Counted from the stretch's first letter, positions 11,655 through 40,437 are shown. The stretch is 64,000 nt of DNA from an uncultured Planctomycetaceae bacterium (GCA_964642855.1 CAZXSK010000011.1:10042-74041), one strand, 5' to 3'. The notes: generated by a model from the sequence alone, not told the origin. Program-made: numbers and translations.

Positions 11655-11687
11655 GACAAGCCTCTCCTGTCAGATCTGCCTACGTCG

Positions 11688-13605: not shown

Positions 13606-13620
13606 GCTCGCCTCTCTAGC

Positions 13621-22364: not shown

Positions 22365-23798
22365 TCAGACCTTCAAGTCCTCCTGGCTGCCGATGCGGTC
22401 AGCGTACTTCTCCCGCAGAGGCATGACGATCTGCTGGAGAAAGTCATCCACCTGCTGTGACGCCCGCCCGACAAATTCGCTCGGGTCCAGCAGCGCATCG
22501 ATGTTTATCCCGGCGAACGCGTCGTCCGCTTTGAGACGCTCGATCAGATCGTTCGCCTGGCCGCGCGTCTTGACGTTCTCCGCAGCGGCCTGGGAATGCA
22601 CGCGAATCTTCTCGTGCAGTTCCTGCCGATCGCCGCCCATCCGTACTGCCTCCATCAGGATGTTCTCGGTCGCCATGAACGGAAGCTCCGCGCGCAGACT
22701 GGCCTCGATGACCGCCGGGTAGACAACAAGCCCGCCCGCAACATTCCCCGCAATCATCAATACAGCGTCAGCCGCCAGGAACGCCTCGCCCATCGCCAGC
22801 CTCTTGTTGGCCGAGTCGTCCAGCGTTCGCTCGAACCACTGCTCGGCTGCTGTGTGCACCGGGCTCTGGGCGAGGTCGATCAGGAACCGCGACAGGGCGG
22901 TCATTCGCTCGCAACGCATGGGATTGCGCTTGTAGGCCATCGCGCTGCTGCCGATTTGCGACTTGCCGAACGGCTCCTCCATCTCCTTGCGGTGGGCCAG
23001 CAGACGAATGTCGTTGGCGAACTTGTGGGCGCTGGCAGCGATCCCCGCCAAGGTCTGCGCGATTGCTGCGTCGACCTTGCGGCTGTACGTCTGGCCGGTG
23101 ACTGGAATGATCTTCTCGAACCCCATGCGGTCGGCAATCATGCGTTCGAGCTTGCGCACCTTCTCGTGATCGCCGTCGAACAATGCGAGGAAACTCGCCT
23201 GCGTTCCCGTCGTGCCCTTGACGCTTCGCAACTCCAGGCTTCCCAGTCGGTACTCCACGTCGCGAAGGTCCTGTACGAAGTCGTAACACCACAGCGTCGC
23301 CCGCTTGCCGACCGTCGTAGGCTGGGCTGGCTGAAAGTGCGTATACCCCAGGCAGGGCAGGTCACGGTACTCCTGGGCGAAGCTGCCCAGCCGGTCGATG
23401 ACATTCGCCAGCCGCGTGGCGATCAGTTTTAAGCCGTCACGCATCAGCAGCAGGTCGGTATTGCAGCCGACGAACTGGCTGGTCGCGCCGAGGTGGATAA
23501 TCGGCCTGGCCAGAGGGGCGGCGTCCCCGAGGGCATGCACATGGGCCATTACGTCGTGACGGAACTGCTTCTCGTACTCAGCCGCCTTGGCGAAGTCGAT
23601 GTCCTCGAGATGCTCGCGGAGCTGGGCGATCTGCTCGTCGGAAATGTCCAGCCCGAGGGCCTGCTGACACTCGGCCAGGGTCAGCCAGAGCTTTCGCCAC
23701 GTCGAGAACTTGCGCTGCGGGCTGAAGATCCGTTTCATGTCCTCACTGGCGTATCGACCCTCCAGCGGACAGATAAAGCTTTCGTATCGGTCGTTCAT
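22365..23798 (-). CDS. purB: adenylosuccinate lyase PurB
   Basis: The fumarate-lyase signature [11 protein letters not shown] is present, and the protein has PurB length and character. Start placed at the internal ATG (MNDRYESF...) rather than the longer ORF-track start. Confidence 0.9.
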
Positions 23799-23860
23799 GG
23801 CGCGGCAAGTGTACCACACCGGGAGTGCCTCGTCAGCGCAGAGACGAGGTGTTCGGCCGG

Positions 23861-23895
23861 AAAACAGAACGGGCCCGCGCAACGTGCGCGAGCCC
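23861..23895 (-). terminator. rho-independent terminator-like hairpin after the DUF4870 gene (minus strand)
   Basis: On the minus strand, GGGCTCGCGC-ACGTT-GCGCGGGCCC is a 10-bp stem with 1 mismatch, followed by GTTCTGTTTT. Confidence 0.4.
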
Positions 23896-23917
23896 GCGAT
23901 CGGTCGTAATCAGAAGT

Positions 23918-24367
23918 TCACTTGATGAAGCGGATATTTACCGGGTAGCGATACCTCACGCCCTGGTTGGCCTTGAGCGTCCCCATGATGCAGAAGATGA
24001 GGTTGGCGATTGCCACAGCAGGAACCAGGACTACCCCGATGCAAATGAAGGTGGTCAGGAACGCAACGATCATCGCAAGGATGACCGTAATCTGGAAATT
24101 CAGAGCTTCCTTGCCTTGGTCATCCACGAACTCGCTGCTTTCCTTCTTGATGAGCCAGATGATCAACGGCCCGAGGAAACCGATGAAGATCGCCAAAAGG
24201 TGGGCGAGCATCCCCATCGTTCGGGCGTCCTTGTCCTGCTCCACGGGGGCAGGTTCGGGTTGGGCACCAACGACTGCCTCTGCCGAGGCGGCGGGCTCCT
24301 GCGGTTCCGGCTGGCCCTGGGGCTGGTCTTGGGGGGCTCCTGAGTCGTCGTTCTGTTGTTCAGTCAT
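23918..24367 (-). CDS. DUF4870 family small membrane protein
   Basis: Acidic/Pro-rich N-terminus, then KDARTMGMLAHLLAIFIGFLGPLIIWLIKKESSEFVDDQGKEALNF and two more TM helices. This is the typical DUF4870 pattern. Confidence 0.7.
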   Translation of the reverse strand: MTEQQNDDSGAPQDQPQGQPEPQEPAASAEAVVGAQPEPAPVEQDKDARTMGMLAHLLAIFIGFLGPLIIWLIKKESSEFVDDQGKEALNFQITVILAMIVAFLTTFICIGVVLVPAVAIANLIFCIMGTLKANQGVRYRYPVNIRFIK

Positions 24368-24750
24368 CGTCCTTGGCCTTTCTGGAAAGTTGTCGACTCA
24401 TCCCGGCCGGCTCTCGTCTTCCTTGTGAGAGTGCTCCGGCCATCTCTTGTGAGGTGCCTGGTCGGCGAGAAGGGAGTAAGTCCCTTCCACACCTTTCTAT
24501 AGACTACGCAACTGTCCTATCGGAGAAAAGCAGGATTTCGCGCAGCTTCTTTCATTCCCAGAAGCTAGAGGTCGTTGCGGAACACATCGCGCGCGCCGGC
24601 GCGCACCAGCCCGACCGGCCTGTCGATTTTCTGAGATATTTTATAACGCTTGAATCCAGATAACGTTGCGATGGTCCCCCGCGGTTTTTCGGAACATTCT
24701 GCGCGCGCAGAAAGCGGCGCGACGGGAGAGGGTGAGGAGAGTGAAAAACC
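24368..24750. promoter_or_regulatory. divergent intergenic control region (DUF4870 gene to the left, phage-like cluster to the right) with two perfect GC palindromes
   Basis: 383-nt non-coding region with an AT-richer segment (gagatattttataacgcttgaatccagataacg). It contains the perfect palindromes GCGCGCCGGCGCGC (24591-24604) and TTCTGCGCGCGCAGAA (24697-24712, 38 nt upstream of the first cluster ATG), and GAGGAGAG as Shine-Dalgarno sequence. Confidence 0.35.
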
Positions 24751-26313
24751 ATGGGATTCGATCTGACACACTTTGATGATTCGCAACTCCAGGTGGACTA
24801 CCTGGAGCATCTGGTGGACCGAAACGCCGCCGAGCGGGCCACAGCCATGAACAGGCTGTGGCAGTACTATCGCAACCCCCAACTGCCCGCCCCGGCGGCA
24901 CAGACGGACCCAGCCGGTACCGCGCGGCCTTACCGTCAGGCGCAGGAAGCAGGTCTTCCCCCTCGCATTACCGGCGACCGCGACGGCCTGTACGGCGGAC
25001 ACTGCCGCAAGGAAGTCGTCATCGAGAACGACATCGCCTGGCGGGTTCACACCATGGTCGACTACCTGTTCGGTACACCCCCGACCATCCGTTCGCTGGC
25101 CTGCAAAGGAACCCGGGCGTTGCAGATCGAGCAACTGATCTCCGGCGCACTGGAAGCCTCCGGCGGCGCCCGGTTGCTGCACGAACTGGCCGTCTTCGGG
25201 GCGGTGTATGGGTTCGTTGACATTGCACTCCGAACACCGGCCGGGGGGCCGGAGGACAGCGCCTCCACCCCGTCCCCCGCCTCCGGCCCGACCTCGGTGT
25301 CGAACCCCCGGCCGGTCCTTCCTTCCTCTGTCGATCCTGGAAAACGGTCGGACGAGGTCTTCCGCCGTGCAATGGCAGCCGTTCGCGCCCTGCAACTGGA
25401 GGCCGTCGAAGCTCCGCGCGTGGTGCCCGTACTCGAAGAGAACGACTATCGCCGGGTTCGCTACTGGATCCAGCGATACGTCAAACCCACCACCCGCATG
25501 AAGCGACGAACGCCCCGCTGGTTCCGTCTGCCGTGGACGCAGGCCGGGGGGGGAACACCCCAGGAGGTCGAGGTCGTCGAAATCCTCGGAGCCGGCTGGT
25601 GGCAGAGGTACGAGAACCGCCTGCTGGTCGAAGAAGGCCCAAACCCCCTCGGGTGCATCCCCGTGGTGCACATCCAGAATCTCTCACAGCCTTGCAGTTA
25701 CGCCGGCACGAGCGATGTCGAGCCCCTGATCCCCCTGCAAGACGAACTCAACACCCGCCTCTCCGACCGTGCCAGTCGGGTGACGTACCAGTCGTTCAAG
25801 ATGTACCTTGGCAAGGGGATCGACGACTTCCTCGAACGCCCCGTCGGGCCGGGGCAGATGTGGTCGACTTCCAATCCCGAGGCAACCATCGAGGAGTTTG
25901 GCTCCGACCAGGGCTCGCCCAGCGAGGACAGTCACATAGCCCAGGTGCGCGAAGCCTTGGACAAGGTCTCCGGGGTCACGCCTCTCGCGGCAGGACTGAT
26001 CCGCGGAAACGTCGGAAACCTCAGCAGCGCCACGGCCCTGCGTGTGCTGCTCAGCGGTCTGCTTTCCCGGACGGTGCGCAAGCGCGAAACCTTCGGCCAA
26101 GGCCTGGCAGAAATCGCGTCGCTGGTCCTGCACTGGCTGGATGTCTCAGGCATCTATCACACACGTCCCGACGAACGGCGCGTGGAGATCCACTGGCCCA
26201 GTCCGGTACCGGCCGACGAGGGGGAACAACTCCGTAACGCCCGGATCAAGGCCCAACTGGGCGTGCCCACCGAACGCATTCTTGCGGAGCTAGGGTACGG
26301 GGACATGTCCTGA
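24751..26313 (+). CDS. phage portal-like protein (first gene of phage-like structural module)
   Basis: 520 aa, acidic. It sits immediately upstream of the scaffold-like and capsid-like genes, which is the canonical portal position. There is no Walker A, so it is not a terminase. The assignment rests on position and size rather than a motif. Confidence 0.45.
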   Translation: MGFDLTHFDDSQLQVDYLEHLVDRNAAERATAMNRLWQYYRNPQLPAPAAQTDPAGTARPYRQAQEAGLPPRITGDRDGLYGGHCRKEVVIENDIAWRVHTMVDYLFGTPPTIRSLACKGTRALQIEQLISGALEASGGARLLHELAVFGAVYGFVDIALRTPAGGPEDSASTPSPASGPTSVSNPRPVLPSSVDPGKRSDEVFRRAMAAVRALQLEAVEAPRVVPVLEENDYRRVRYWIQRYVKPTTRMKRRTPRWFRLPWTQAGGGTPQEVEVVEILGAGWWQRYENRLLVEEGPNPLGCIPVVHIQNLSQPCSYAGTSDVEPLIPLQDELNTRLSDRASRVTYQSFKMYLGKGIDDFLERPVGPGQMWSTSNPEATIEEFGSDQGSPSEDSHIAQVREALDKVSGVTPLAAGLIRGNVGNLSSATALRVLLSGLLSRTVRKRETFGQGLAEIASLVLHWLDVSGIYHTRPDERRVEIHWPSPVPADEGEQLRNARIKAQLGVPTERILAELGYGDMS

Positions 26314-26366
26314 CCCGCTTCGCGCAAGAAGACCACCCAGACAGAAGTCACAGAAAGGAAACCACC

Positions 26367-26951
26367 ATGTCGGATGAACTGCGCACAGACTGCGAGCAGA
26401 AGGCGCCGGAGGCTTCCGAGCCCCAGGCCAGTCAGGACAAACTCGTGCCCGTCAGCGAGTCGATCAAGTACCGCCGCCGGGCCCAGCAAGCGGAAGGGGC
26501 CGCCGCAAAGCTCCAGCAGGAACTCGAAGATCTCCGCGGAGAACTGCAACAACGAGACGAGCAACTCGCACAGGCCGACGCCATGCGAGACGAAGCGTCC
26601 GGTCGCCTGCAGGCCTTGGAGAACGAGCGTCAGGCGGAACGGCTTCTTCTTGCGTCGGGCGCTACCGATACCGAGACGGCGCTGGTGCTACTCGGTCGGC
26701 GGCTGGACCTGAGTGGTGAGTTCGAGCCGGACGAGCTTCATCGGGCCGTTGAGCAACTGCTGGTCGACAAGCCCAGCCTCTGCGGCCGTGCTGTCGGCGC
26801 TCTGCCGTCGGCGACGGCGTCTGCTTCCGCCCAGGCAGGCGGTCCTGCCATGCAGCTCACCCAGGCAGCCCAGCGTGCCTCGAAGACGGGCGACCGACGC
26901 GATGTAGCTGAGTACCTCCGTCTGCGGCGGAGGGCATCGGCCTCGACCTGA
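26367..26951 (+). CDS. phage scaffolding-like protein (coiled-coil, Q/E/R/A-rich)
   Basis: 194 aa. Heptad-like stretch LQQELEDLRGELQQRDEQLAQADAMRDEASGRLQALENERQAERLLL. Located between the portal-like and capsid-like genes. Confidence 0.4.
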   Translation: MSDELRTDCEQKAPEASEPQASQDKLVPVSESIKYRRRAQQAEGAAAKLQQELEDLRGELQQRDEQLAQADAMRDEASGRLQALENERQAERLLLASGATDTETALVLLGRRLDLSGEFEPDELHRAVEQLLVDKPSLCGRAVGALPSATASASAQAGGPAMQLTQAAQRASKTGDRRDVAEYLRLRRRASAST

Positions 26952-27071
26952 CCCAGCAGGGCACGTCCTGAGCATTGCGCGGTGCGATGACTCAGCCCCC
27001 GGCAGCAGCCGGACGGAGGAACACAATACCACCCCGCGGGAACAAAAGCCCGCCAGAGACAGGAGAACACC

Positions 27072-28232
27072 ATGGCCTTTACGGGCAAAGCAACCTATGA
27101 CGCCGGCAGCGCCCTGCCGGAAATCGCAGAAGACGTGGCCGACCTCGTGAGCATCGTCTCACCGTACGAGACCCCGCTGCTGGATCACTTCGGTGACCCG
27201 ACCCGCCCGGCTACGAGCACCTACCACGAATGGATCGAAGACCAACTGCTGCCCAACAGCGACACCATCGACCAGACGTCGTGGTCCGATGCATCGGCCG
27301 ACGCCACGTTCGGCGTGGACCACGTGTCCTACTTCCGCGTGGGCGACCAGGTCCGGCCCAACGGCAGCAGCGAACTGCTGCTCGTGACGGCCGTCGATAC
27401 CGCCACTGACCAGGTCACCGTGGTGCGTGGCTACGGCGGTACCACGCCCGAGGATCTCACCGACGGCCAGACGCTGCACATTCTGGGCAATGCTGCCCTG
27501 GAAGGCGACGACGCTCCCGAGGCGCGGTTCTCTACCCGCGTGCGGAAGGGCAACTGGACGCAGATTTTCACCGCCGGCGTTCGCGTCAGTGGGTCCGACC
27601 TGGCCGTCAAGAAGCTTTCGGTGTCCGACGAGCTGGACTACCAGAAGCAGGAACGCCTGCGGGAACTGCTTCGCGATCTGGAGAGCACCGTCATCAACGG
27701 CGCCGCACCGGAGAGCACGCCGCAAGGCTCATCGACCGTTCGTCGCACGATGCGCGGGATCATTCCCTCCATCAACACCAACGTGTTCCAGCCCGGCGTC
27801 GACAGCGTGCCCGGAGGCGGGGACCTGTCCGAATCGCAGCTGAACTACTGCCTGCGACGCATCTGGGAGCAGTCGTCCAGCCGCATCGACACGATTGTTG
27901 TCAACGGCTACCAGAAGCGACGGATCAACAGCTTCGTGCTTTCCTCCCGCAGCTTCGGGTCCGAGGACGAGCGGTTCGTGGACCTGGTGAACATCTACGA
28001 GAGTGACTTCGGCGTCTGCCGGGTGATTCTCTGCCGATCGATGCCCGCAGACAGCGTCCTGCTGCTCGACAGCTCGCGTGTCAGCGTGCTGCCCCTGGCC
28101 GGGCGAAGCATGCAGTACAAGTCGCTGGCGTCGACCGGTGACTACGAATCCGGCGAAGTCCTCGGCGAGTACACCCTCGAGCTTCGCAACGAGAACGCCC
28201 ACGGCCTGATCACCGGCCTGGACATCAACTGA
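27072..28232 (+). CDS. phage major capsid protein-like (HK97-fold-like, inferred)
   Basis: 386 aa, AGGAGAA Shine-Dalgarno sequence. Size, position after portal and scaffold, and composition are typical of major capsid proteins. No maturation protease gene is present, which fits a scaffold-dependent capsid. Confidence 0.5.
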   Translation: MAFTGKATYDAGSALPEIAEDVADLVSIVSPYETPLLDHFGDPTRPATSTYHEWIEDQLLPNSDTIDQTSWSDASADATFGVDHVSYFRVGDQVRPNGSSELLLVTAVDTATDQVTVVRGYGGTTPEDLTDGQTLHILGNAALEGDDAPEARFSTRVRKGNWTQIFTAGVRVSGSDLAVKKLSVSDELDYQKQERLRELLRDLESTVINGAAPESTPQGSSTVRRTMRGIIPSINTNVFQPGVDSVPGGGDLSESQLNYCLRRIWEQSSSRIDTIVVNGYQKRRINSFVLSSRSFGSEDERFVDLVNIYESDFGVCRVILCRSMPADSVLLLDSSRVSVLPLAGRSMQYKSLASTGDYESGEVLGEYTLELRNENAHGLITGLDIN

Positions 28233-28304
28233 GGTCCCTGACCCGACGTGCGCCCCGGAGCGTTTCCGGGGCGCACCGGGCGCTTGCATACGCGGAGTAT
28301 CGAC

Positions 28305-28958
28305 ATGGAAACCTATTGCCAGGATCGCGACCTGTTGCGGCTGGAACCGACGCTGTTCCTCGCCGGCGGCGCCCCGGGACAGGAACTGACGCGTCACGAC
28401 GGCGTCGACGTCAGCGGGACGACCCTTACCTGCAGCTCCGCCGACTTCACCGAGTCGGGTATTGCGCCAGGAATGGTCGTCACGCTGTACACCGACCATC
28501 CCGGAGAAGGCGTCGGGCTGGAGATCATCTCTATCGATGGCCCGACCCAGCTGACCGTTTCTGTACTTCGGCCCCGGACCGACCTGCCTGCCATCCCGCC
28601 CCAGCCATGCACCGACGCATCGCTCCTCGTCCATACCTACCAAGCCCAGATCCAGGCGGTCAGCAGCAACCTGGGTGAGAAGCTCCGCACGCTGGCCGAA
28701 GCCGAAGGGGTCGACATATCAGACTTCGGTCCGTCGTGGCAACTCACGCATGCGGTCACCTGTGGCGTGCTGGCAGAGGTCTTCACCAGCCGCGCAGAAC
28801 AGGGGCAGGTCGACGACACGACGTGGCTGAAAGTTCGCCACTACGGCGACGAATTCCGGCGGTCTCTCGTCCAGATCCGACTCACCGTGGACGCAAACGG
28901 TGATGGCATCGCCGAACGCACTCGTTCGCTGGGCAATGTCCGCCTCCGGAGGACGTAG
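28305..28958 (+). CDS. phage-like structural protein (head completion/connector candidate)
   Basis: 217 aa. ATG at 28305 after GGAG. It immediately follows the capsid gene. Confidence 0.45.
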   Translation: METYCQDRDLLRLEPTLFLAGGAPGQELTRHDGVDVSGTTLTCSSADFTESGIAPGMVVTLYTDHPGEGVGLEIISIDGPTQLTVSVLRPRTDLPAIPPQPCTDASLLVHTYQAQIQAVSSNLGEKLRTLAEAEGVDISDFGPSWQLTHAVTCGVLAEVFTSRAEQGQVDDTTWLKVRHYGDEFRRSLVQIRLTVDANGDGIAERTRSLGNVRLRRT

Positions 28959-28960
28959 TC

Positions 28961-29389
28961 ATGTCTGGCCTCTATGATCTGCTGGCCAATATCCTCGGGG
29001 TGCTCCGGAGTGTTCCTGACCTCCGCGCGGTCTCGCTGGCCGGTGAGCCGACCAGCCGAGAGGTGCCCCGTGCCTCGGTGGCTGTGCTCTCGCGCGAGAC
29101 CTTCCCCCCGGATGACTCCGCGACGGGGATCTGGCATCGCACGACGATACGCATCGCGATCGTCACCAACGCGGGACGCACCGACGCGGGCCTCGCAAGA
29201 CTCTCCGAACTCGCTGAAACCGTTGCCCAGGCTCTTCTCGGCGACCCGCACCGGGGCGGAACCTGCAGCGACCTGCCCGTCGGGAGGGCGACCGAGATCG
29301 AATGCTTCGAGACCCTCGACGTCGACGAGCCCGGACGCGTGGCCGTGACCCTGGTCGTTCGAACGCACAGCGAAAGCGAGGTGGCGTGA
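28961..29389 (+). CDS. phage head-tail joining/tail-completion-like small protein
   Basis: 142 aa. GGAGG 6 nt before the ATG. Size and position are typical of head-tail adaptor proteins. Confidence 0.45.
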   Translation: MSGLYDLLANILGVLRSVPDLRAVSLAGEPTSREVPRASVAVLSRETFPPDDSATGIWHRTTIRIAIVTNAGRTDAGLARLSELAETVAQALLGDPHRGGTCSDLPVGRATEIECFETLDVDEPGRVAVTLVVRTHSESEVA

Positions 29390-29793
29390 TGGCCCGCTAC
29401 AGCCGCATCGAGTCCGTCCAGTTCGATGGCGTGGTGCTGCCCCTGCCGGTGTCGGTGAAGACCAACCGTTCGGCTGCCGTCGCGCCGCGGTGCGACGACA
29501 CCCGTCTTCACGAGTCCAGCGTACAACTGCACGACGCTTGGGTAACGGCCGAGTTCACCTGCCGAGGCCTGGCCGTCGCCGACAGCCTGTCTCTCGGTCA
29601 ACAGGGCGACTGCGTGATCGATCTTCGCGACGCTTCCGGCTCAGGAGGGAGACGGATGACGCTTCACTCCGCCGTCGTCGTGGACATCCGGACAAGCTGC
29701 GACCAGCGCCAACCGGCGGAGACCGTCGTGCGACTTCGCGCCCAGGCCGACGATGTTCACACCACCCCCTACCAGACGGAGGTGACGCCATGA
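29389..29793 (+). CDS. phage-like small structural protein
   Basis: 134 aa. ATG overlaps the upstream TGA as TGATG. Confidence 0.4.
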   Translation: MARYSRIESVQFDGVVLPLPVSVKTNRSAAVAPRCDDTRLHESSVQLHDAWVTAEFTCRGLAVADSLSLGQQGDCVIDLRDASGSGGRRMTLHSAVVVDIRTSCDQRQPAETVVRLRAQADDVHTTPYQTEVTP

Positions 29794-30155
29794 TCCTCTT
29801 CGACCAGCAGGACCTGTACTCGTCGGGGCCCGCGTCGCTCCAGCCGGACAGTTGGCAGCGGCAGACGGTCCGAAGGGGCTTCGCCGGCCAGGATGGCGAG
29901 TTGCTGCTCGACCTCGGCCGCCGGTCGCGCGCGATCGTCCAGACCGGCCGGTTGCAGGCCGACACAATCGACGCTCTCGATTCGCAGATCCAGGCTATCG
30001 AAGCCGCCGCCGATGGCGACGTCTGCACGTTGACCGGTCCACACGGCCGGGAATTCCCCAACACCATTCTCGAAGGGTTCTCGCTGCAGACGCCCGTTCG
30101 CACCGGCCGGGGGCTGTGGTGCGATTACCGCATCGAATACAGGCAACTGCGATGA
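29790..30155 (+). CDS. phage-like small structural protein
   Basis: 121 aa. ATGA start/stop overlap with the upstream gene. Confidence 0.4.
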   Translation: MILFDQQDLYSSGPASLQPDSWQRQTVRRGFAGQDGELLLDLGRRSRAIVQTGRLQADTIDALDSQIQAIEAAADGDVCTLTGPHGREFPNTILEGFSLQTPVRTGRGLWCDYRIEYRQLR

Positions 30156-30886
30156 CGCCCGAACTGCACACCGACGATATCCGCCTCCTTTCGGCCACGC
30201 CGAACGGCAGCCCGCCGGGTTGGCTTTTTGAGTACGAGACCGGCCACGCCAGCCGCGCCCACCAGCTGTACGTCGACGGGCGCCTGGCAGACTGGGCCCA
30301 GCCGGGGGAGCCTCGCACGTTCTTCCTGCCCGACACATCCCGCGCCGCACGGATCACCGTTGTCGCCGTCGACGTTCCCTTCATGCGGCGAGACCTGTCC
30401 CGGTTGCTGCCGCCTTACGCAGCAGCGCCGACATGGACGAACGGGTACCTCCTGACGCGCGCCCCGACCCTTCGCGACGGCGACCAGGTCGCGATCCTCG
30501 CGCGAGAGCAAGGCAGCGACCCGTCGGCCGACACCGTCGTCGACCGACAGATCGCCTGGCCTGCAGATCGGCCTCGGTGGGCGTTCGGCGAGGACGCCTT
30601 CGGCCGGGGAGCATTTGGCTGGGGCGGCTCGCGGGCGCCCGGCATGGGCGAAGCGCACTTCGGCGCGGGTCCGTTCGGCTTCGACGAAGCCGGCCTGTCG
30701 CTCGTGGCGGATCTGCAGGAATCAGGCCGATACGTCCTGACCCCCGCCAGCCTGTCCATCGACGGCACGATCGTTCGCGCCGACCCGCAGACCGTGGACG
30801 TCGAGCTGCCGCCCCCGCCGGGGGGCTCTCTCTCCGTGACGGACTACGACTCCCAGACCCGAACCATCACCCTTTCCCTTTCCTGA
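30152..30886 (+). CDS. phage-like structural protein with Gly-rich segment
   Basis: 244 aa. ATGA overlap with the upstream gene. Contains FGRGAFGWGGSRAPGMGEAHFGAGPFGFD. Confidence 0.45.
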   Translation: MTPELHTDDIRLLSATPNGSPPGWLFEYETGHASRAHQLYVDGRLADWAQPGEPRTFFLPDTSRAARITVVAVDVPFMRRDLSRLLPPYAAAPTWTNGYLLTRAPTLRDGDQVAILAREQGSDPSADTVVDRQIAWPADRPRWAFGEDAFGRGAFGWGGSRAPGMGEAHFGAGPFGFDEAGLSLVADLQESGRYVLTPASLSIDGTIVRADPQTVDVELPPPPGGSLSVTDYDSQTRTITLSLS

Positions 30887-30894
30887 GGAACACC

Positions 30895-31728
30895 ATGACT
30901 GAACTCTACCCGACCGACGCCGACCTCAACGCCCTGTCCGGGGCCACCGATCCCGAGCAGGAAGTACTCTTCCTGCCCATTGGCGAGTCGCCGTATCACA
31001 CGAGCTTCTACCGAATGCTCTACCGGCTGCTGGACGTCTCCCGCCGGGCCGGCGACCTGCGCGTGTACAAGGACGGAGATCTGACCTTCGGCGTCAGGCC
31101 AGGTCGCTGGATGAACGGCCAGGCCGAAGTCGTCTACGTCGGCAGCGAAGCCAATGCGCTGGCCAATAACCTCGACAATTACATCTACCTGCTGCCGGAC
31201 GGGACGCTCACGACCAATACCACCGGCCTGCCCGATCCGGTCGACCAACCCCACCTGCCCCTCGCGAAGATCTCCACCAGCCTGGGCACCTACGCCCACG
31301 GCGACATCACCGACCTGCGAGGCCGGGCGCTGTACCGCCCGTGCGGCGGGCTTGTCGGCGACCTGGAAGCCCAGGCCGTCTCCCTCATACCGACGCTGTC
31401 GATCACCGCAGCCGCCGAAGTGTCCGACGTGCGAACCCTCTCGGTGCAGGTCTGCGACGCTGCCGGCTCGGACCAGGCTGGACGGTTCGTGATCCGCACC
31501 TGGTTGGCGGAGTCCGAGTTCGCCGCCCCGTCGGCGACGGGCAACAGCGTAGCCGTCTCGGCCGGGTCTGCACTTCGCCAGATCCAGGCCAATGCGGACT
31601 ACGAGCTGATCAGCGACAGTTCCGGCCTGGTCTCGCTCGATGTCACCATCACCTCCACCGCCACCCGCTACCTCATGGCCGAGATCGACGGGAAGATCTA
31701 CTCCAGCGGCCCGGTGGATTGGGCGTAG
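30895..31728 (+). CDS. phage-like tail/structural protein
   Basis: 277 aa. GAGGA before the ATG. Ser/Thr/Ala-rich beta-type composition. Confidence 0.45.
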   Translation: MTELYPTDADLNALSGATDPEQEVLFLPIGESPYHTSFYRMLYRLLDVSRRAGDLRVYKDGDLTFGVRPGRWMNGQAEVVYVGSEANALANNLDNYIYLLPDGTLTTNTTGLPDPVDQPHLPLAKISTSLGTYAHGDITDLRGRALYRPCGGLVGDLEAQAVSLIPTLSITAAAEVSDVRTLSVQVCDAAGSDQAGRFVIRTWLAESEFAAPSATGNSVAVSAGSALRQIQANADYELISDSSGLVSLDVTITSTATRYLMAEIDGKIYSSGPVDWA

Positions 31729-31753
31729 CCCCCGCTTCCGAAAGCGACTCAAC

Positions 31754-33874
31754 ATGACCATCTATCATCACATCGACAATTCTGTTCCGGACTTCGGTGA
31801 GTGGGACTCCGTCACCGGCGCCTCCTCGGGGGTGTTGACCCAGACGCCGGATGCAAACTGGCCGGAGCAGCCCGGCATGGGCCTGCGGATCGACACGGCA
31901 GCGCAGGCAGTCGCCCACGCCGACAAGTCACTTGGGCTTACTCTTGCACCGGGCCAGCGGCTTACGTGGACCTTCTCGCTCAATGCACACGGAAGCATTT
32001 CACTGGCTGTGTTCGCTATTCTCACGGCGTCGGCGAGGACAGCCCTCTGCGTGCTGCAGGAGCTCGGAAACCAAGTCCGCTTCAGCGCAGCGAGGGATCC
32101 CGGTGGGTACGAGGACCTCGTCGCCGACGTGCACGTGGGATGCTGGCACCGGTTCTCGCTGAGTATCCGCAGAGCATCCGCGCCCGGGGTAGCAGACGGG
32201 GAAGTCACGCTCTGGCAGGACGGCGTCGTTCGGGATCATGCGAGCATCGAGAACTACAACAGCACGAGCGGGCTTCTTGCGCTGACGTGCGGCAATCTCG
32301 TGGCCGTCACCGCAGCAACGGAACTCGACATCGACGACCTGGTCTTTTCCGATGACCGGCCATCGCCCGGGTCTTCTTCCACAGACATCAGCGCCCCATC
32401 GACCTACGGCACCATCCTGCTTATTCCCGATTCCGAGCAAGGCTACCTCTTCGGCGAACAGTGCGCACAGATCGCAGGCGTTCCGCGGGCGAACATCCTT
32501 CATCTCCCGGGGCTGTCGACCTCGGAGCAGCTTGCCTCCTACAGCGACTTCCAGCAGCAGGTCGAAACGCCACTGGCGGAGTTCTTCAGCAACTGGCCCG
32601 ACCTCGCCGACCGCTGCTGCTGTTTCCTGCTCGGACCGGGCGTGCCCGGGTCTTTTCTGCACGAAGGGGTCGCCCACTCCACCGCTTCACGATTGATGCG
32701 CTTTGGCCAGCCGTTTGTCGGAAGCGTCGCGAACCCGCTGATCTGCTTGCCTCTCGGGCGTCTCGACCCCGCGACGCTTCGATCGCACGGGATCCATCTC
32801 GCCGCCCGGATCGACGGGCCCACCTTCAGCGAAGCGTGCGATCTTCTCCACCGAGGGGTGGACTGCACGTCCGATGCGATCCCGCAGGACAACCGCTTCT
32901 GCTGCGACGATGGAGACGTTCGCGCGTCCCTGGCCGCCCAGGCGCTCCGACTTGACGCGGACCCACTGGACCTCCTTGAAAACGACGCGATCACCTGGAC
33001 GCAGACCGACCCATCGGGCTGGGGAGAAGGCGGCGCCCGCGCCCTGTTCGCCGATCTCCGGGCTGGCTCGCTGACCGCGCTGCGAACGACCTCCGACGCC
33101 GTCAGCGATGCGATCCACACGCGCGGATACGCAGCGGGGGTCGGATCCGTCGGAGCTGCCCTTGCACTCGACCCCCACCGATTCCTGACGATGTTGCATC
33201 TCGGGGCAACCCTTGCGGAAGCGGCGGCTGTTTCCTCGCCGACGCTCGATGACGGACTGGTGCTGGCGGGGTATCCGATGGCGACGCCGCAACTTCCCCG
33301 AGGCGGGGCGACGATCTACCGCGGCAGGGGGTCGATCCGCCAGGTCGATTGGTCCCAGCCTGTGGCCTATCTGCGGGAGGGCCAGACGCAGGTCACGCTG
33401 CCCAACCCGCTGGATGGCGCCGGCGACCACGTCCTTGCCGCCCGCCGCGTGTCGCAGGCCGGCCTGGAGGAGCAAAGCACCCACGTTGTCGCCATCGCCC
33501 GCATCGACGAAGACGGCCAGTTGCTTCCGCCACCGTTGCCCGTGCCGGCCGACCTGTCGTTCACCCCGCTTTCCGCAACGTCGGGGCTTTTGCACTGGAC
33601 GAACCAGTCGGAGCCGGGCTTCGCCTTGCCGGACGAATACCAGGTTCTGGCAGCCAATCGGGCGGACTCGCTGGCCGGCAGCGACCCTGTACTCACCGTA
33701 CCCGGTTCCGAGAGCGCCCCCTTCCTGGTGGCTGAGCTGGACCCGCTGCCAGAAGGTCCCTGGCTTGCGGTCCGTGCCGTCGCCCAAGGCCGAGCCGGGC
33801 GTCTCAGCAAGCCGCTGCGAATCCAGGCCAATCCGACACTGCCCGCACCTGCAAGCCTTGGAGGTCCCTCATGA
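31754..33874 (+). CDS. large phage-like tail fibre / receptor-binding-like protein with C-terminal fibronectin-III-like domain
   Basis: 706 aa. The N-terminal region resembles a concanavalin/LamG-like jelly-roll (EVTLWQDGVVRDHASIENYNSTSGLLALTCGNL). The C-terminal about 100 aa (DLSFTPLSATSGLLHWTNQSEPGFALPDEYQVL...) fit an FN3 pattern. Confidence 0.5.
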   Translation: MTIYHHIDNSVPDFGEWDSVTGASSGVLTQTPDANWPEQPGMGLRIDTAAQAVAHADKSLGLTLAPGQRLTWTFSLNAHGSISLAVFAILTASARTALCVLQELGNQVRFSAARDPGGYEDLVADVHVGCWHRFSLSIRRASAPGVADGEVTLWQDGVVRDHASIENYNSTSGLLALTCGNLVAVTAATELDIDDLVFSDDRPSPGSSSTDISAPSTYGTILLIPDSEQGYLFGEQCAQIAGVPRANILHLPGLSTSEQLASYSDFQQQVETPLAEFFSNWPDLADRCCCFLLGPGVPGSFLHEGVAHSTASRLMRFGQPFVGSVANPLICLPLGRLDPATLRSHGIHLAARIDGPTFSEACDLLHRGVDCTSDAIPQDNRFCCDDGDVRASLAAQALRLDADPLDLLENDAITWTQTDPSGWGEGGARALFADLRAGSLTALRTTSDAVSDAIHTRGYAAGVGSVGAALALDPHRFLTMLHLGATLAEAAAVSSPTLDDGLVLAGYPMATPQLPRGGATIYRGRGSIRQVDWSQPVAYLREGQTQVTLPNPLDGAGDHVLAARRVSQAGLEEQSTHVVAIARIDEDGQLLPPPLPVPADLSFTPLSATSGLLHWTNQSEPGFALPDEYQVLAANRADSLAGSDPVLTVPGSESAPFLVAELDPLPEGPWLAVRAVAQGRAGRLSKPLRIQANPTLPAPASLGGPS

Positions 33875-35607
33875 GCTGCACCTGGACGCTGCCGAAGATC
33901 CCGATCACCGCGACGGTCCTTCGTCCGCTTCCGCCGCGTATCCTCGTGGCTGGCCGCAGGCGATATGACCTGCAGGCACTCGGATGGCGGGTCGAAGGCC
34001 CCCCGCTGTTCGGACAGGCCGAGATCGTTCTGCGTTCGCCGCTGGCTGCCGGCCGAGACGTCCGGCTGGAGCAGGCGCACCGGTTGCCGGCAATCGGGGA
34101 AGAAGTCGTCCTGCTTCCGGGCGATCGGCAGGACTCGTGGCGCTTCCCCGGCATCGTTGTCGAGCACCGAACCGGTATCGACGACGGCGAGCGATTGGTC
34201 GCCGTGCTCAAGCATCGCCTGGGTGTGCTGCTGGACATTCATGCGATCGGCCGATGGGTTCAGACTCCCGCCGGCCCGGTCGACCGATCGGACCTGCCTC
34301 TGCACTTCAACACCGGCCCGGAGACACTTGCCACCCCGGACGTCCACGAGACCTCGTCAGGCAGAGTGACTCGAAGGTTCACCTCCGCCCCTGAAGGTAC
34401 GCGATGGACATTCGCCGATGCACTGTCCTACGTGATCGCTGTCTTCGTGCCCGAATCGGTCGACGTGCCTTCCCGCGAAGAACTGCTCGACCTCTGTGGC
34501 CGGCGCGAACTCCTGCCTGCCCGCTTTGAGGGGCGGGGTCTCTGCAGCGTGCTGGAAGAACTCTCCGCAAGGGCGGGTTTGGTCCTCCGTGGTTCACGAA
34601 GCGGCCGCGGCCTGGTGATTCACAAGGCCGGCGAAGGCCGAACGCGCCAGGTTCGGCTGCAGGCTCCCGGGGGCGACTTTCACCCCTCCACGACCAACCT
34701 GTGGAAGGCGGAGATCGTCACGCGCACCCGCCCTCGAAAGCCCGGCGTATTGGCCATCGGGCAGAAGAAGCGATTCGAAGTGACCCTGCAACTCCAGCCC
34801 GGATGGGATCCGTTGGACGAGACCTCGCGATGGCGCGATACGTCGCGGGAACTCGCCTCGCCCGGCGCCCGGCTGGAGTCTGTGTACAGGCGATGGGTGC
34901 TCAACGAGCACGGAGCGTACAGTCGGCCTCCGCTGGCTCTCGATGCGACTGACCTGTCGACGATCTCAGCGGAGGACTTCCAGGAGGTCAAGGCCAGGCG
35001 ATGGCTTCCGTGCATCTCGTGCGATGCGCTGGGACGGTCGCTCGGGGTCGTCGTCGAGGTCAGCACCGATGGCGGTTCGACCTACGCCCCCTGGCCGGGA
35101 CGCGTGCGCGTGTCCCGCGAGCAATGCGCCATCTTCCTGGACGATCCGTCGCTGCCCGCCGACTACTTCGCCGCGGCCGTCGAAGGGCTCGTCCGGGTCC
35201 GTGTCACCGGCTGCCTGGAAGGCGACCTGCCGCTGATCTGGCACGAGCCCGGCCGGGACGGCGACGGAGTCGAAATCCTGCGTGACCAGGAGGCGCGTTG
35301 GGCTGCGGTGCATTCCAGCAGCATCTTCTCCGGCGAGGGCGCCGTCGGGCCGACAGATCAGGCCGATGACACCGGGCGACTGCAGGATCTGGCCGCGGCC
35401 TGTGTTGCCGATCAAAGCGAACGGTCCCGTTCGTCCTTGACCCTCGGCTGGGTCGACGGCGGTTACCACGTCGGCGACATCATCGAACGTGTCGAGGGCA
35501 GATCCCTCGACCTGCCCTCGGCACGCGGAGCCGGCGGGCGGATCGTCGGCGTCCGTCACGTGTGCGGCGACACCCAGACCACCACCCTCATCGTGGAGCA
35601 AGCATGA
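33871..35607 (+). CDS. large phage-like tail/baseplate-like protein
   Basis: 578 aa. ATGA overlap with the upstream gene. No enzymatic motif was recognised. Confidence 0.5.
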   Translation: MSCTWTLPKIPITATVLRPLPPRILVAGRRRYDLQALGWRVEGPPLFGQAEIVLRSPLAAGRDVRLEQAHRLPAIGEEVVLLPGDRQDSWRFPGIVVEHRTGIDDGERLVAVLKHRLGVLLDIHAIGRWVQTPAGPVDRSDLPLHFNTGPETLATPDVHETSSGRVTRRFTSAPEGTRWTFADALSYVIAVFVPESVDVPSREELLDLCGRRELLPARFEGRGLCSVLEELSARAGLVLRGSRSGRGLVIHKAGEGRTRQVRLQAPGGDFHPSTTNLWKAEIVTRTRPRKPGVLAIGQKKRFEVTLQLQPGWDPLDETSRWRDTSRELASPGARLESVYRRWVLNEHGAYSRPPLALDATDLSTISAEDFQEVKARRWLPCISCDALGRSLGVVVEVSTDGGSTYAPWPGRVRVSREQCAIFLDDPSLPADYFAAAVEGLVRVRVTGCLEGDLPLIWHEPGRDGDGVEILRDQEARWAAVHSSSIFSGEGAVGPTDQADDTGRLQDLAAACVADQSERSRSSLTLGWVDGGYHVGDIIERVEGRSLDLPSARGAGGRIVGVRHVCGDTQTTTLIVEQA

Positions 35608-36161
35608 CCGATATCGATCCATACACAGACCGTCTCCAGTGGCTTGCCCAGGCAGGCGGCGTTCGCGGCGTGCAACTCGTGCGCATCGGCGAGGTCGACA
35701 GCGGCAACTGCTACCAGGCCCAACCCGCGGAGTTCGACTCGTCGGGCGAGCTTGCGACCATCGACGGGTCGACGCTGACGGTGACCAACATCGCCGAGAC
35801 GCCGGACAGCGCAGGCCAGGTTCCCGCCGGCAGCCACGCATGCGCCGTCGACGTCGAAGGCCGGTGGATCGTGCATCTCTCGCCGCCATCCACCAGCGTG
35901 TTCCCCGCGAAGGTGATCTCCGCCGATGGCGGGGCGACCTACACGGTTCGCGAGCAGCAGATAAGTGGTACGGACACGTTGTCCGACGCAGCCGGGGCCG
36001 TTGATGTCCCGGCACGCAATCTCTCGGAACTCACCCTCGGGCCCGGGGGGGCAGTCGATGTCGGCGCGATCGTACTGGTCTGCCCGAGACCCGACGCAGC
36101 CAGCCCCGCGACGCTTCGGTACCTCTTCGACCATCCCGTCTACGCCAGGTACCTGGACTGA
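35604..36161 (+). CDS. phage-like structural protein
   Basis: 185 aa. ATGA overlap with the upstream gene. Confidence 0.45.
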   Translation: MTDIDPYTDRLQWLAQAGGVRGVQLVRIGEVDSGNCYQAQPAEFDSSGELATIDGSTLTVTNIAETPDSAGQVPAGSHACAVDVEGRWIVHLSPPSTSVFPAKVISADGGATYTVREQQISGTDTLSDAAGAVDVPARNLSELTLGPGGAVDVGAIVLVCPRPDAASPATLRYLFDHPVYARYLD

Positions 36162-36164
36162 CCC

Positions 36165-37202
36165 ATGACCTATGACCCGACATGGAGCCAGGGCGACGCC
36201 ACCGGCCTGCAGGGCGGGGTACATTCCGTCCGCGCCACGGACGTCGGCGAGATCGCAGCTGCGATCAACCGCAGGCGGGAACTGACCTACCAGGACGCGC
36301 AGGACTACTCCGGCGGGATCCAGGCCGGCAGGTGGATCGACACGTCCGTGATCGATGCAGCCACAGCTCCGCCCTTCGAGAACCTGCGAAGCTCGTGGAC
36401 GAGCGACATTCTCTCTGCGCCCGTGGGCACGCTGGGGGGCAACCCGCCGTCGCCGACATGCATGGACTGGCTGTGGCCTGTCGCTGACGCGGACGAGGGC
36501 AAGGTGATCGTCGCCTCTGCGCCCGGGGCAGGGGAGGTCGGGCTGTTCGCAAAGATCAACGGCGGCAGCGACTGGACCGACCCCACGCTGGCGGCCGGGC
36601 AGACCGCCGTCCGGACGGTGCACGTCAACGAACTCCGCGATGCAGCTGCGATTGTCTCTCGCGGCCGGTGGACGCTCCCTGTGTACCTGGCCGGGGGGAT
36701 CTTCTCGATCATGCCCGACACGCCGTGGATCGGAGACTCGGTCGCCAACAACGGCAGCGACGAACTCCGCGCGGTCGGCTTTGCCTGGCTGCGGTCGCCG
36801 GCCACGCCGTCGCAGGGGCTTGTGAACGTGACCGTCCGCGACGCCAGCGAACTGGAGCTGACCGCGTCGGACGACTGCAGCCTGGCTATCTACCGGTGCT
36901 GTCGCGCCATCGATTTCCTCGCCGACCCGCCGACCTGGAACGAGTATGCCCCGTTGGGATCATCGGCGTGGGCTTTGCCTGGCGGAACGGGCGCGGGCGA
37001 TGCGGTCTACCTCGGGCAGGTCTCCTTGGCGGCCGGGGTGCCGGGCACGCTGAGCAACTCCGCACTCGCCCTGGGGCTGCAGGCGATGGTGGACGGCGAG
37101 CCCCAGAACTTCCTGATCCGTCGGACCGACGCCAGCCCGGACACCATCGACGTATCGGCCACCGCACGAATCGAATTCGACTTGAACACACCCCCTAACT
37201 GA
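36165..37202 (+). CDS. phage-like structural protein
   Basis: 345 aa. Starts 4 nt after the upstream stop. Confidence 0.5.
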   Translation: MTYDPTWSQGDATGLQGGVHSVRATDVGEIAAAINRRRELTYQDAQDYSGGIQAGRWIDTSVIDAATAPPFENLRSSWTSDILSAPVGTLGGNPPSPTCMDWLWPVADADEGKVIVASAPGAGEVGLFAKINGGSDWTDPTLAAGQTAVRTVHVNELRDAAAIVSRGRWTLPVYLAGGIFSIMPDTPWIGDSVANNGSDELRAVGFAWLRSPATPSQGLVNVTVRDASELELTASDDCSLAIYRCCRAIDFLADPPTWNEYAPLGSSAWALPGGTGAGDAVYLGQVSLAAGVPGTLSNSALALGLQAMVDGEPQNFLIRRTDASPDTIDVSATARIEFDLNTPPN

Positions 37203-37215
37203 GGAAGGAGCAACC

Positions 37216-37488
37216 ATGGAACCGTTGACAGGAATCACCGACTTTGCAGGACTCGGAGCGGCCGGGCTGATGGGAGCGATGTGGCTGTGGGAGCGAAAGC
37301 TCAGCCGCGACCGCGACCAGCAGCTCGTGCAGTCTCACGAGCGGATCATGCGGGACGAGCAGCGGCTCGACAAGCTCACCGAGGTCGTCGAGCACAACAC
37401 CACCGCGCTGACGCGGTTCGAGGAGGTCCAGCGGCTGCAGACCGACGTCCTGCAGCACATGCTCAAGGAGCGCGGCCATGTTGCGTAG
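37216..37488 (+). CDS. small single-TM coiled-coil protein (holin- or i-spanin-like candidate)
   Basis: 90 aa. Strong GAGGAAGGAG Shine-Dalgarno sequence. One TM helix (GLGAAGLMGAMWLW) followed by a charged coiled-coil. Confidence 0.45.
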   Translation: MEPLTGITDFAGLGAAGLMGAMWLWERKLSRDRDQQLVQSHERIMRDEQRLDKLTEVVEHNTTALTRFEEVQRLQTDVLQHMLKERGHVA

Positions 37489-37972
37489 GCGACTGCTTGT
37501 CTGTTCGTCGTGGGTCTGCCTGCTGGCCGGGTGCGGCGCGCCTCCGGCGACGGTCGATCTGCTGTCGGTCGCGCGGGAGGGTGTCGCCCGGGCAGGCGAC
37601 CAGCAGGAGCAACTGCACGAGCAGAAAATCCGTCAGCTGGAGGGCAATTTGGACGCCCTGGACCGCGCATTCGACGCCGACGTGCGGCTGGTTGCTTCCG
37701 GCGGGGTCACCGCTGCCGACGGCGAGGTACTGGAATTGACGCCCGAGTGGGTGATCTCGTCCCGCAAGGGCTACGCAGCCGGGCGGTCGATCATCCAGGA
37801 GCAGATCCGCCGGGAACTGCAGGACCACGCCCTTCGCCGGGAGAACCTCCACGCGGTCGACGACGCGTTGGAGATGGCCCGGAGGCTGCTTGTCCGCCAG
37901 CAGTTGCTGCTGGGGCGGATGGGCGTTTCGTGGGAGCGGCTGGAAAGGAGGATCCGCGATGACCAGCGATGA
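37478..37972 (+). CDS. small lipoprotein (o-spanin-like candidate)
   Basis: 164 aa. Lipobox LLAGC. Overlaps the upstream gene by 11 nt. Coiled-coil-rich. Confidence 0.45.
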   Translation: MLRRRLLVCSSWVCLLAGCGAPPATVDLLSVAREGVARAGDQQEQLHEQKIRQLEGNLDALDRAFDADVRLVASGGVTAADGEVLELTPEWVISSRKGYAAGRSIIQEQIRRELQDHALRRENLHAVDDALEMARRLLVRQQLLLGRMGVSWERLERRIRDDQR

Positions 37973-38225
37973 CTTCCCCCGCCGTATCGTTGCCCTCGCC
38001 GTGGAGCGTGCCTGGGACCAGTGGGCACGCGAGCACCCGTCCCTGGCTGCGGCGCTTGACGACGTGCAGTTGATCAACCAGGCAGCCGAGTCGGTCCGCC
38101 ACACTCCCGCCTACCGCCGCGCGGTCGAGACGTTCCACCGCGACGAGCAGACGCTGATGCTCTTCGAGCGTCTGTGGAGCCTGGCCGGGCCGGCGGTTCG
38201 GGAGCTTCTCAGCGCAGCCGGATGA
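37959..38225 (+). CDS. small hypothetical protein, last gene of phage-like module
   Basis: 88 aa. ATG at 37959 overlaps the upstream gene's 3' end. Confidence 0.35.
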   Translation: MTSDDFPRRIVALAVERAWDQWAREHPSLAAALDDVQLINQAAESVRHTPAYRRAVETFHRDEQTLMLFERLWSLAGPAVRELLSAAG

Positions 38226-38676
38226 CCGCCGATTGCGTGTCGTTGTACGGGTCTCCGCGCCGGACGCGCACCGTGACCTCGAACGGGTACGGCAGCGTTT
38301 CCGCCCGGAGGCCCGGAGCATATTCCACCCGCACGGGCTCGTAGCGATCGAGCGGGACGGCCTTGCCGGGTGAAAGCTCGATCGACTTGCCTCCCGCGTC
38401 GGCGATGCTGATGCCCGCGGCGTCCAGCGCGATCGGCAGGCCGGAGGTGTTCTCGACTTCGACGATGAGCTTCTCCAGCAGCGGCGGGGTGGTGGTGTCG
38501 GCCACTTCGATGCCCCGCAGCGTGACCTGCCAGCCGGTCTTGCGGAGGGTCAGCCTGCGGGTCTGGACTTCCCACATTCCGTGCTCATCCTCGAACTCGA
38601 CGATCGCCGGGACCGTCCGATGAGACAGGCATCCGCCGGCGAGGAAGACAAGCAAAACAGTCGCGAGAGTTCGCAT
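38209..38676 (-). CDS. lipoprotein, hypothetical
   Basis: Signal peptide plus lipobox MRTLATVLLVFLAGGC. GGAGG Shine-Dalgarno sequence. Convergent with the phage-like module and overlapping it by 17 nt. Confidence 0.55.
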   Translation of the reverse strand: MRTLATVLLVFLAGGCLSHRTVPAIVEFEDEHGMWEVQTRRLTLRKTGWQVTLRGIEVADTTTPPLLEKLIVEVENTSGLPIALDAAGISIADAGGKSIELSPGKAVPLDRYEPVRVEYAPGLRAETLPYPFEVTVRVRRGDPYNDTQSAVIRLR

Positions 38677-38738
38677 GGTTGGCCTCCGGCCTGGTTGGGT
38701 GGTTTTCTTCGCGCGTTGGTCCGGCTACGATCATAGCC

Positions 38739-40291: not shown

Positions 40292-40437
40292 TTGGGTCGC
40301 TCCTTCGTTTCGGGGAGGCTAACGATACCGGATCGGTCCATCCGACCGACCCATAACCTACTCTAGGGTGTCCGGCCGGGCGATTCCAGTACACCGCCCA
40401 GCCGACAACTCTTTATACTACATCTACGTAGAGTGCA

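Follow-up and report, generated by a model that had tools for sequence, protein, structure and literature searches.

How does a set of phage head genes come to stand in the chromosome of a planctomycete, and whom does it serve? The question is raised by positions 24751-28232 of a 64,000-nucleotide stretch of DNA from an uncultured Planctomycetaceae bacterium (GCA_964642855.1, CAZXSK010000011.1:10042-74041), referred to in its full length as the window, where an earlier reading made from the sequence alone (the sequence-only reading) had noticed a triad of portal-like, scaffold-like and capsid-like genes lacking a maturation protease. The triad stands at the front of a cluster of about 16 co-oriented, tightly packed genes (24751-38225, approximately 13.5 kb), whose gene calls were refined against an identical public contig. 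The interpretation considered probable here is that this cluster encodes an anciently domesticated, phage-derived head-tail particle, or viriform, whose function would be the transfer of DNA in the manner of gene transfer agents (GTAs), with the terminase located elsewhere. The domestication part of this interpretation is strongly supported; the DNA-transfer function is a guess.

Phage head genes in a bacterial chromosome

The three open reading frames (ORFs) of the triad lie on the plus strand at 24751-26313 (520 aa), 26367-26951 (194 aa) and 27072-28232 (386 aa), and are preceded, directly 5' of the respective ATG codons, by the Shine-Dalgarno strings GAGGAGAG, AAAGGAAACC and AGGAGAA, just as the sequence-only reading had described them. 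Their GC content at third codon positions (0.77-0.84) is in the range normal for genuine genes in the source genome. The portal, scaffold and capsid roles proposed by that reading have been borne out by profile searches, in which the outer two proteins matched portal and capsid families above the curated thresholds, and by conserved alignment blocks in the middle one. The 520-aa product is an SPP1 gp6-like portal protein, encoded by the first cluster gene in all genomes examined, with 41-68% identity among loci. It matches PF05133 (4e-12, 46.3 bits against a cutoff of 25.5) over residues 277-514 only and phrog_104 (7e-23) over residues 230-516. The protein had been called acidic, a description that its isoelectric point (pI) of 6.0 justifies only mildly.

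The 386-aa product is a major capsid protein (MCP) of the SU10/DUF5309 family and belongs to the most conserved gene of the cluster. It is matched by PF17236 (SU10_MCP; E = 1e-84, 284.9 bits against a cutoff of 24.1, residues 13-383) and by phrog_1328 (1.5e-74), and an HK97 fold is predicted from this family membership. The protein is approximately 90 residues longer than the Pfam model, its residues 13-383 being aligned to 281 profile positions, and most podovirus MCPs align with it only from residue ~140 onward, so that an additional N-terminal or insertion domain is suggested, which may be particular to this clade and a few phages.

Between these two genes, the 194-aa protein has been classed as scaffolding-like from its place, from the alignment of its orthologues, from its composition and from weak matches to coiled-coil families such as the crescentin rod; no family in Pfam or PHROGs matched it. 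It has a pI of 5.1, and the residues A, E, L, Q, R, K and D make up 82% of positions 30-100. The protein had earlier been described as heptad-rich, but heptad periodicity was not rigorously shown by the crude scan that was applied. In an alignment of 30 orthologues, an N-proximal block (KLVPVxESIKYRRRAQQAE) and a basic C-terminal block (AAxRAxxTGxRRDxAEYLRLRR) are kept, a layout that would suit a scaffold with one end for binding the capsid. In P22, the scaffold binds the coat by its C-terminus, and the basic C-terminal block may correspond to that end.

No protease family was matched by any cluster ORF in Pfam or PHROGs, searches which a very divergent protease could escape. Since a distinct scaffold gene separates those for portal and capsid and a prohead protease was not matched, the module has the protease-less architecture that had been proposed, as in P22-, T7- and SPP1-like heads. 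The same succession of portal, scaffold and capsid, lacking a maturation protease, is present in the head modules of P22-, T7-, SPP1-type and SU10-capsid phages, and in Sporosarcina phage Lietuvens, the closest GenBank phage by MCP, a scaffold gene is followed by the MCP gene and no protease is annotated. These phage modules, however, follow a terminase and lie in phage genomes, whereas the module of the cluster starts at the portal and lies in a chromosome, and the phage MCPs are at most 33-38% identical to that of the cluster.

The window is bacterial chromosome, and not a phage genome or an ordinary prophage. On the left, the cluster is flanked by type IV pilus genes and by genes for HemN, an FHA protein, a sugar nucleotidyltransferase, two M16 peptidases, a MurD-like ligase, adenylosuccinate lyase and a DUF4870 membrane protein, and on the right by those for a LigD 3'-phosphoesterase domain protein, Fur, a GDSL lipase, a GH130 enzyme, permeases, ABC exporters and TldD/PmbA. 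Within the 64 kb, no terminase, integrase, repressor, replication or other lysogeny gene was matched and no tRNA was detected; no repeats resembling phage attachment (att) sites were found around the cluster, and no Rfam family was found over 23500-40500. The features of an integrated prophage are likewise lacking within 10 kb of the cluster in its relatives. Nor does the cluster consist of tail genes only, as a tailocin would, since capsid and portal genes are present and are its most conserved members.

Inheritance in Planctomycetota and distance from viruses

Searches with the MCP at E <= 1e-10 have retrieved more than 4900 homologues. Among the best 120, identity is 70-99%, nearly all lengths fall at 382-388 aa and many of the genes are located on contigs of 0.1-1 Mb; the named sources are Planctomycetota or Phycisphaerae, with the sole exception of a Vicinamibacterales label (P0054). 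A scan with one genome per GTDB species detected at least 596 genomes that encode a relative, the listed 80 of which are all metagenome-assembled genomes (MAGs) of Planctomycetota, two complete chromosomes among them. Across these 80, MCP identity is 62-77% and the labels are mostly those of Phycisphaerae lineages, e.g., Phycisphaerales, Sedimentisphaerales and Anaerohalosphaeraceae; the label 'Pirellulales' is unreliable, the MCPs that carry it being 83-89% identical to Sedimentisphaerales-labelled ones.

All contexts read show one and the same gene order, with the cluster starting exactly at the portal. Upstream of this boundary, the sub-clade of the window has the adenylosuccinate lyase gene, usually together with DUF4870, and distant sub-clades have unrelated cellular genes. 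Among 14 genomes, mean pairwise identity is highest in the MCP (76%), followed by the adjacent adenylosuccinate lyase (70%) and the portal (63%), and the divergences of MCP and lyase are correlated (Spearman 0.55). Median dN (nonsynonymous divergence) is 0.19 in the MCP against 0.23 in the lyase, with a ratio to synonymous divergence (dN/dS) of about 0.26, a rough value since dS is near saturation. Purifying selection acts on the capsid gene with at least the strength seen for the neighbouring housekeeping gene. The GC content of the cluster also tracks that of the host, from 0.50 to 0.62. Given the conserved order and boundary, the conservation of MCP and lyase and the match in GC content, the cluster bears the signatures of a fixed, vertically inherited and selected host locus, and not those of a prophage.

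A terminase gene 5' of the portal was considered for the distant lineages and rejected, the neighbours there being a PfkB kinase, an amylase, polysaccharide synthesis genes, DXS and a DinG-like helicase. All-against-all clustering of the flanking ORFs of relatives has also revealed no further recurrent family, least of all a terminase-like one.

The cluster is far removed from known viruses. A megablast search of 24000-36000 against GenBank phages gave no match, and the best GenBank phage MCP is 33% identical. In IMG/VR, two contigs have MCPs that are 62% and 72% identical, with all other MCP relatives at 38% or less; on the fetched viral contigs from IMG/VR, no homologue of the other cluster genes is present save for a weak portal match (25-29%) on five contigs. 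One of the two, L087 (IMGVR_UViG_3300031673_016560), is a 39-kb contig listed as viral that simply carries the whole chromosomal cluster, and it is therefore likely that virus-prediction pipelines count this domesticated locus as a virus.

The other, L086 (IMGVR_UViG_3300033145_000895), is a genuine phage, with genes for RecT, an exonuclease, a resolvase, methyltransferases, a primosomal protein, the large terminase subunit (TerL) and a portal, and its own major head protein is of a different family from the cluster MCP. A 386-aa MCP of the cluster type is nonetheless encoded in its early region, among recombination genes (6735-8183; also L166). This copy is nested in the host clade, being 72% identical to the MCP of the window and 80-88% identical to other host copies, and its DNA is 88% identical to that of a host cluster (L167) from the same metagenome. 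Ahead of this copy lies a 92-aa ORF, a mini-scaffold that retains only the C-terminal block of the scaffold. The phage MCP looks like a captured host gene, and its presence suggests that the host particle matters during infection and hints at a conflict of phage and host.

Tail genes, promoter and flanks

From the absence of a tape-measure-sized helical protein downstream of the capsid gene, the sequence-only reading had concluded that the particle would be short-tailed and podovirus-like. No such helical protein has been recognized downstream, as that reading had noted. The conclusion drawn from it is not supported, because a tail-terminator-like protein and a hub of the gp27/VgrG type are encoded there. 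Tail terminators and gp27/VgrG-type hubs are parts of long-tailed phages and contractile systems, not of podoviruses. The cluster also gave no match to nozzle or tubular proteins, and the tail is predicted to carry parts of the long-tail type.

The tail-terminator-like neck protein is g142 (28961-29389; all cluster genes are on the plus strand). Members of its family align over almost their whole length with phrog_4204 ('tail terminator'; L016 at 1.5e-5, L021 at 3e-3), with four members at <=1e-3 and the window copy itself below threshold. The putative tail or baseplate hub is g578 (33871-35607, 578 aa), whose AlphaFold2 model reaches predicted local distance difference test (pLDDT) values of 80-94 at residues ~20-265, i.e., in the N-terminal half. 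When this model was compared with the PDB by Foldseek, the top 26 matches (E <= 1e-3) were all hub or spike proteins, including 7b5h_AJ (2.8e-7), 3d37, 3cdd, 9h4p, VgrGs and the phage Mu baseplate 9ki1_G; the matches comprise an Anabaena contractile-injection baseplate, Mu-type 43-kDa tail proteins, the P1 baseplate and the HFTV1 tail. The model was built from an alignment of 5 sequences, that being the number of proteins that both single-sequence and 43-sequence-profile homologue searches gave. The predicted fold of the N-terminal half is thus that shared by gp27, P2 gpD, Mu gp44 and VgrG, the hubs of long-tailed phages, tailocins, extracellular contractile injection systems and type VI secretion systems. 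Unlike contractile systems, the cluster has no sheath, tube, gp25-like or J-like baseplate proteins recognizable by family searches or hhalign, and a contractile machine is therefore not supported.

The remaining genes surround these two. Right after the MCP, g217 (28305-28958, 217 aa) is a candidate head-tail adaptor by position only; it occurs in 76 loci with a mean column identity of 55% and has no match in Pfam, PHROGs or PDB sequences. Two small conserved neck or tail proteins follow g142, namely g134 (29389-29793), present in 23 loci of the closer sub-clade only and with no match in a profile search of PDB sequences, and g121 (29790-30155), present in 63 loci of all sub-clades and with nothing found by the same type of search or by hhalign. 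The next protein, g244 (30152-30886), was modelled (pLDDT 92.6) as two FN3/Ig-like beta-sandwich domains with a Gly/Phe-rich linker and is probably an accessory structural protein; its family counts just 165 representatives among 1.84 billion cluster representatives, and a role as tail tube was ruled out by the high-confidence model with its two FN3 domains. It is followed by g277 (30895-31728), which is fibre- or spike-like, with the N-terminal ~160 aa kept, a variable C-terminus and family members of 145-653 aa. PHROG 'tail spike protein' families were matched by single members of the scanned protein set, and these matches presumably belong to the g277 family.

Directly before the hub in every case stands g744 (31754-33874; likely start MTIYHH, the longest ORF beginning at 31640), with a family range of 189-1246 aa. 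In siphoviruses the gene just before the hub is that for the distal tail protein, and the place of g744 suggests this function. It was rejected as a tape-measure protein since it does not appear long-helical by eye, varies in length to the extent given and lies immediately before the hub. After the hub come two conserved proteins, g199 (35604-36161; 45-53% identity in the closer sub-clade) and g345 (36165-37202; 29-56%, mostly >=45%, in the same sub-clade). Profile searches of PDB sequences found no match for g199, and neither these searches nor hhalign found any for g345; the PDB-sequence searches also returned nothing for six cluster families. Comparison by hhalign of the g134, g121, g578, g345 and g142 families with the tube, hub, J-like and neck proteins of phage Lietuvens yielded nothing significant. 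Near the end, g90 (37216-37488; 38-71% conserved) has a hydrophobic, likely transmembrane, segment at its N-terminus with a coiled coil after it and is a candidate lysis or release factor, and g164 (37478-37972; conserved in closer relatives), a predicted lipoprotein with the lipobox LAGC and coiled-coil regions, is its candidate partner. The final conserved gene is g111 (37890-38225), with an uncertain start codon and orthologues of 83-111 aa.

The region in front of the portal holds a conserved promoter module with two boxes. The proximal box is a perfect 16-bp palindrome, TTCTGCGCGCGCAGAA, at 24697-24712, about 50 bp 5' of the portal ATG, and its core, TGCGCGCGCA, occurs exactly only once in the 64 kb (0.38 expected by chance). 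A degenerate distal copy, GGCGCGCAC, lies at 24595-24606, about 150 bp 5' of the ATG, a weak match whose place fits that in relatives. In the sub-clade of the window, at least 15 related loci have the core at -44 to -54 relative to the portal ATG, and at least 10 have a second copy at approximately -150 to -165, with a box spacing of 109-114 bp.

This pair of palindromes is by no means restricted to the cluster. Two copies of TTTGCGCGCGCAAA about 111 bp apart occur in at least 120 metagenome loci with a sharp spacing peak at 110-112 bp, and the cluster promoters make up 3-4 of the 120 matches listed, so that a cluster-specific operator that would lead to a co-regulated terminase locus was rejected. 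A module common to many of the other loci consists of a palindrome, an AT-rich tract, CGGCCCGGCCGG, a second palindrome, TAAGGGTAGAGG and a GC hairpin; among the scanned loci (L169-L288) it is sometimes tandem (L231, L169, L185). A boxA-like string, TTTGACAA, prompted the idea of an rRNA-operon promoter, which was also rejected, as Rfam found no rRNA downstream and one instance precedes enolase, lying about 0.5 kb 5' of that gene (L188). The widespread loci probably come from related bacteria, and a promoter of a class that also stands at many other loci would fit control of the cluster by the host. In L004, from one relative, a further palindrome pair with similar flanks (166-283, 108 bp apart) is located 7.4 kb 5' of the portal, where two genes converge and none is called between them. 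Matches to the Rfam sRNA family Acido-Lenti-1 with 38-48 bits, above the gathering score, were observed a few hundred bases from palindrome modules and on the opposite strand (L234 446-500 and 1217-1263; L175 6949-6995).

Some observations concern the neighbours of the cluster. A predicted lipoprotein is encoded right after it on the minus strand (38209-38676), with no homologue in any fetched locus. Next come the gene for the LigD 3'-phosphoesterase domain protein (38679-39107), which is a stand-alone LigD_N domain, and a 249-aa ORF, the stretch extending to 39853; both are common to the closest relatives only and hence belong to the host flank rather than to the cluster. On the left, the adenylosuccinate-lyase-like gene (22365-23882, minus strand) has an end-to-end match to phrog_1703, a family of unknown function (3.6e-138), and close homologues of this host enzyme are evidently carried by phages, as judged from that match. 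The type IV pilus set (5339-14703), with PilB- and PilT-like ATPases, a PilC-like platform, PilM, PilN and PilO, lies 10-20 kb from the cluster but is not syntenic with it in relatives. Its proximity is probably coincidental, though pili may be relevant if particles or DNA uptake use them.

Function of the particle and rival explanations

Particles of phage origin that act for their hosts include the RcGTA-type GTAs of Alphaproteobacteria, BaGTA, VSH-1, Dd1 and VTA. GTAs in general are phage-derived, chromosomal, vertically inherited and under selection (PMC9662315). The cluster resembles them in being a phage-derived set of structural genes that is fixed in the chromosome, vertically inherited and under purifying selection. 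The likeness extends to a chromosomal set of head-tail genes of ~14-15 kb lacking integration and replication genes, to vertical descent across a higher taxon and to what may be a host-type promoter. In other respects the systems differ, the host phylum being Planctomycetota here. No sequence relationship with RcGTA was seen: RcGTA opens with terminase genes and has a protease and a different HK97-type MCP (PF05065-type), whereas the cluster has neither a large (TerL) nor a small terminase gene, an MCP assigned by Pfam to the SU10/DUF5309 family, a separate scaffold and no protease matched.

According to the interpretation preferred here, the host would make tailed particles with a capsid. Aided by the scaffold, procapsids would form on the portal and would mature without proteolysis, and the head would receive a short, non-contractile tail with the hub and variable fibres at its end. 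Such particles would serve the host, most likely as a GTA-like vehicle that packages cellular DNA, and g90 and g164 might serve in their release. As no terminase lies near the cluster, DNA packaging would depend on a gene outside the surveyed region, and the terminase would have to be encoded elsewhere in the genome.

Two other explanations deny the locus a host function. An ordinary or decaying prophage of a widespread temperate phage family would account for the fact that all recognizable cluster genes are phage structural genes, and for the two IMG/VR contigs with a close MCP copy that are listed as viral, L087 even having the whole cluster. This explanation is largely refuted and now hardly tenable, as the 64 kb contain no integrase, repressor, replication gene, terminase, tRNA or att repeat, dozens of species have kept the ORFs intact and the MCP exceeds the neighbouring housekeeping gene in conservation, the same boundary and gene order are found across orders beside different host genes, and the cluster, ameliorated in GC content to each host, is separated by a wide gap from all viral MCPs. 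It is also very unlikely that the cluster represents the structural half of a complete inducible phage, with the terminase, replication and lysis genes at a second chromosomal locus, which would amount to a split selfish virus. DNA-filled particles would indeed need a terminase and lysis enzymes from somewhere, and the survey of relatives covered ~10 kb on either side of the cluster. Such a selfish virus, however, could not package both of its halves, and class-wide fixation, stable position, housekeeping-like conservation and a putative host-type promoter are better explained by exaptation.

A further alternative, regarded as doubtful, grants the particles a host function but places it in phage-host conflict or in killing rather than in autonomous gene transfer. 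In the former case, heads and tails lacking their own terminase would exploit that of an infecting phage, as a satellite-like or abortive defence that packages host DNA or diverts phage packaging; in the latter, the product would be a headed killing or delivery particle. That no terminase is linked to the cluster in the window or in relatives agrees with this view, as do the strong variation of the fibre-like genes between lineages and phage L086, whose captured MCP and 92-aa mini-scaffold have the appearance to be expected of a decoy or counter-measure. L086 is, however, the single phage of this kind that was found, a conserved terminase may lie elsewhere in the genome, and the interaction with a phage terminase is conjectural. 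Capsid-forming satellites (such as cf-PICI, capsid-forming phage-inducible chromosomal islands) do share with the cluster the possession of their own capsid, portal and connector genes and the reliance on another element for missing functions, but they are mobile, integrase-bounded and patchy in distribution, with a replicon and packaging signals, whereas the cluster has none of these features and is fixed across the class. In its most specific form, considered improbable, a host-owned capsid-and-tail kit would hijack the terminase of an infecting phage, sabotaging the phage and spreading host genes, and phages would answer with a decoy MCP and mini-scaffold. If true, this would constitute a new class of chromosomally fixed, class-wide 'capsid defence / altruistic GTA' systems.

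The interpretation as a domesticated particle with a GTA-like function has to be held against several difficulties. The terminase expected of a GTA is missing locally, none having been matched in the 64 kb or, in relatives, in the 10 kb on either side of the cluster. Pfam, PHROGs, PDB profile searches and hhalign brought to light neither a tail tube nor a tape-measure protein nor an endolysin, and the latter two left seven conserved cluster proteins with no assignable fold. The hub model is confident in its N-terminal half only and derives from a five-sequence alignment. The test of vertical inheritance comprised one flanking gene in 14 genomes, and the dN/dS values are rough at near-saturated dS. 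The genomes inspected were 80 of the at least 596, and the taxon labels of MAGs are inconsistent.

No description of such a cluster in Planctomycetota has been found in the literature. The cultured Phycisphaerae strain Poriferisphaera heterotrophicis ZRK32 is reported to release hexagonal particles without lysis when given nitrate or ammonium, which have been ascribed to a 21.9-kb extrachromosomal phage (PMC10945688), and these are no evidence about the present cluster.

To our knowledge, few independent domestications of phages into host-serving particles are known, those being the examples from RcGTA to VTA named above, and none of them is in Planctomycetota. If the interpretation is correct, the cluster would represent an independent domestication in a new phylum, distinct from known GTAs in its capsid family and in lacking both a protease and a linked terminase. 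It would be ancient and class-wide, with at least 596 species involved and a capsid gene as conserved as a core metabolic enzyme, and it would offer a new model for how viruses are exapted. It would also be a warning that virus-prediction pipelines count the locus as viral, as at least one IMG/VR contig attests. The phage with a stolen capsid gene suggests an arms race, and the cluster might explain gene flow or phage resistance in an abundant, little-studied environmental lineage.

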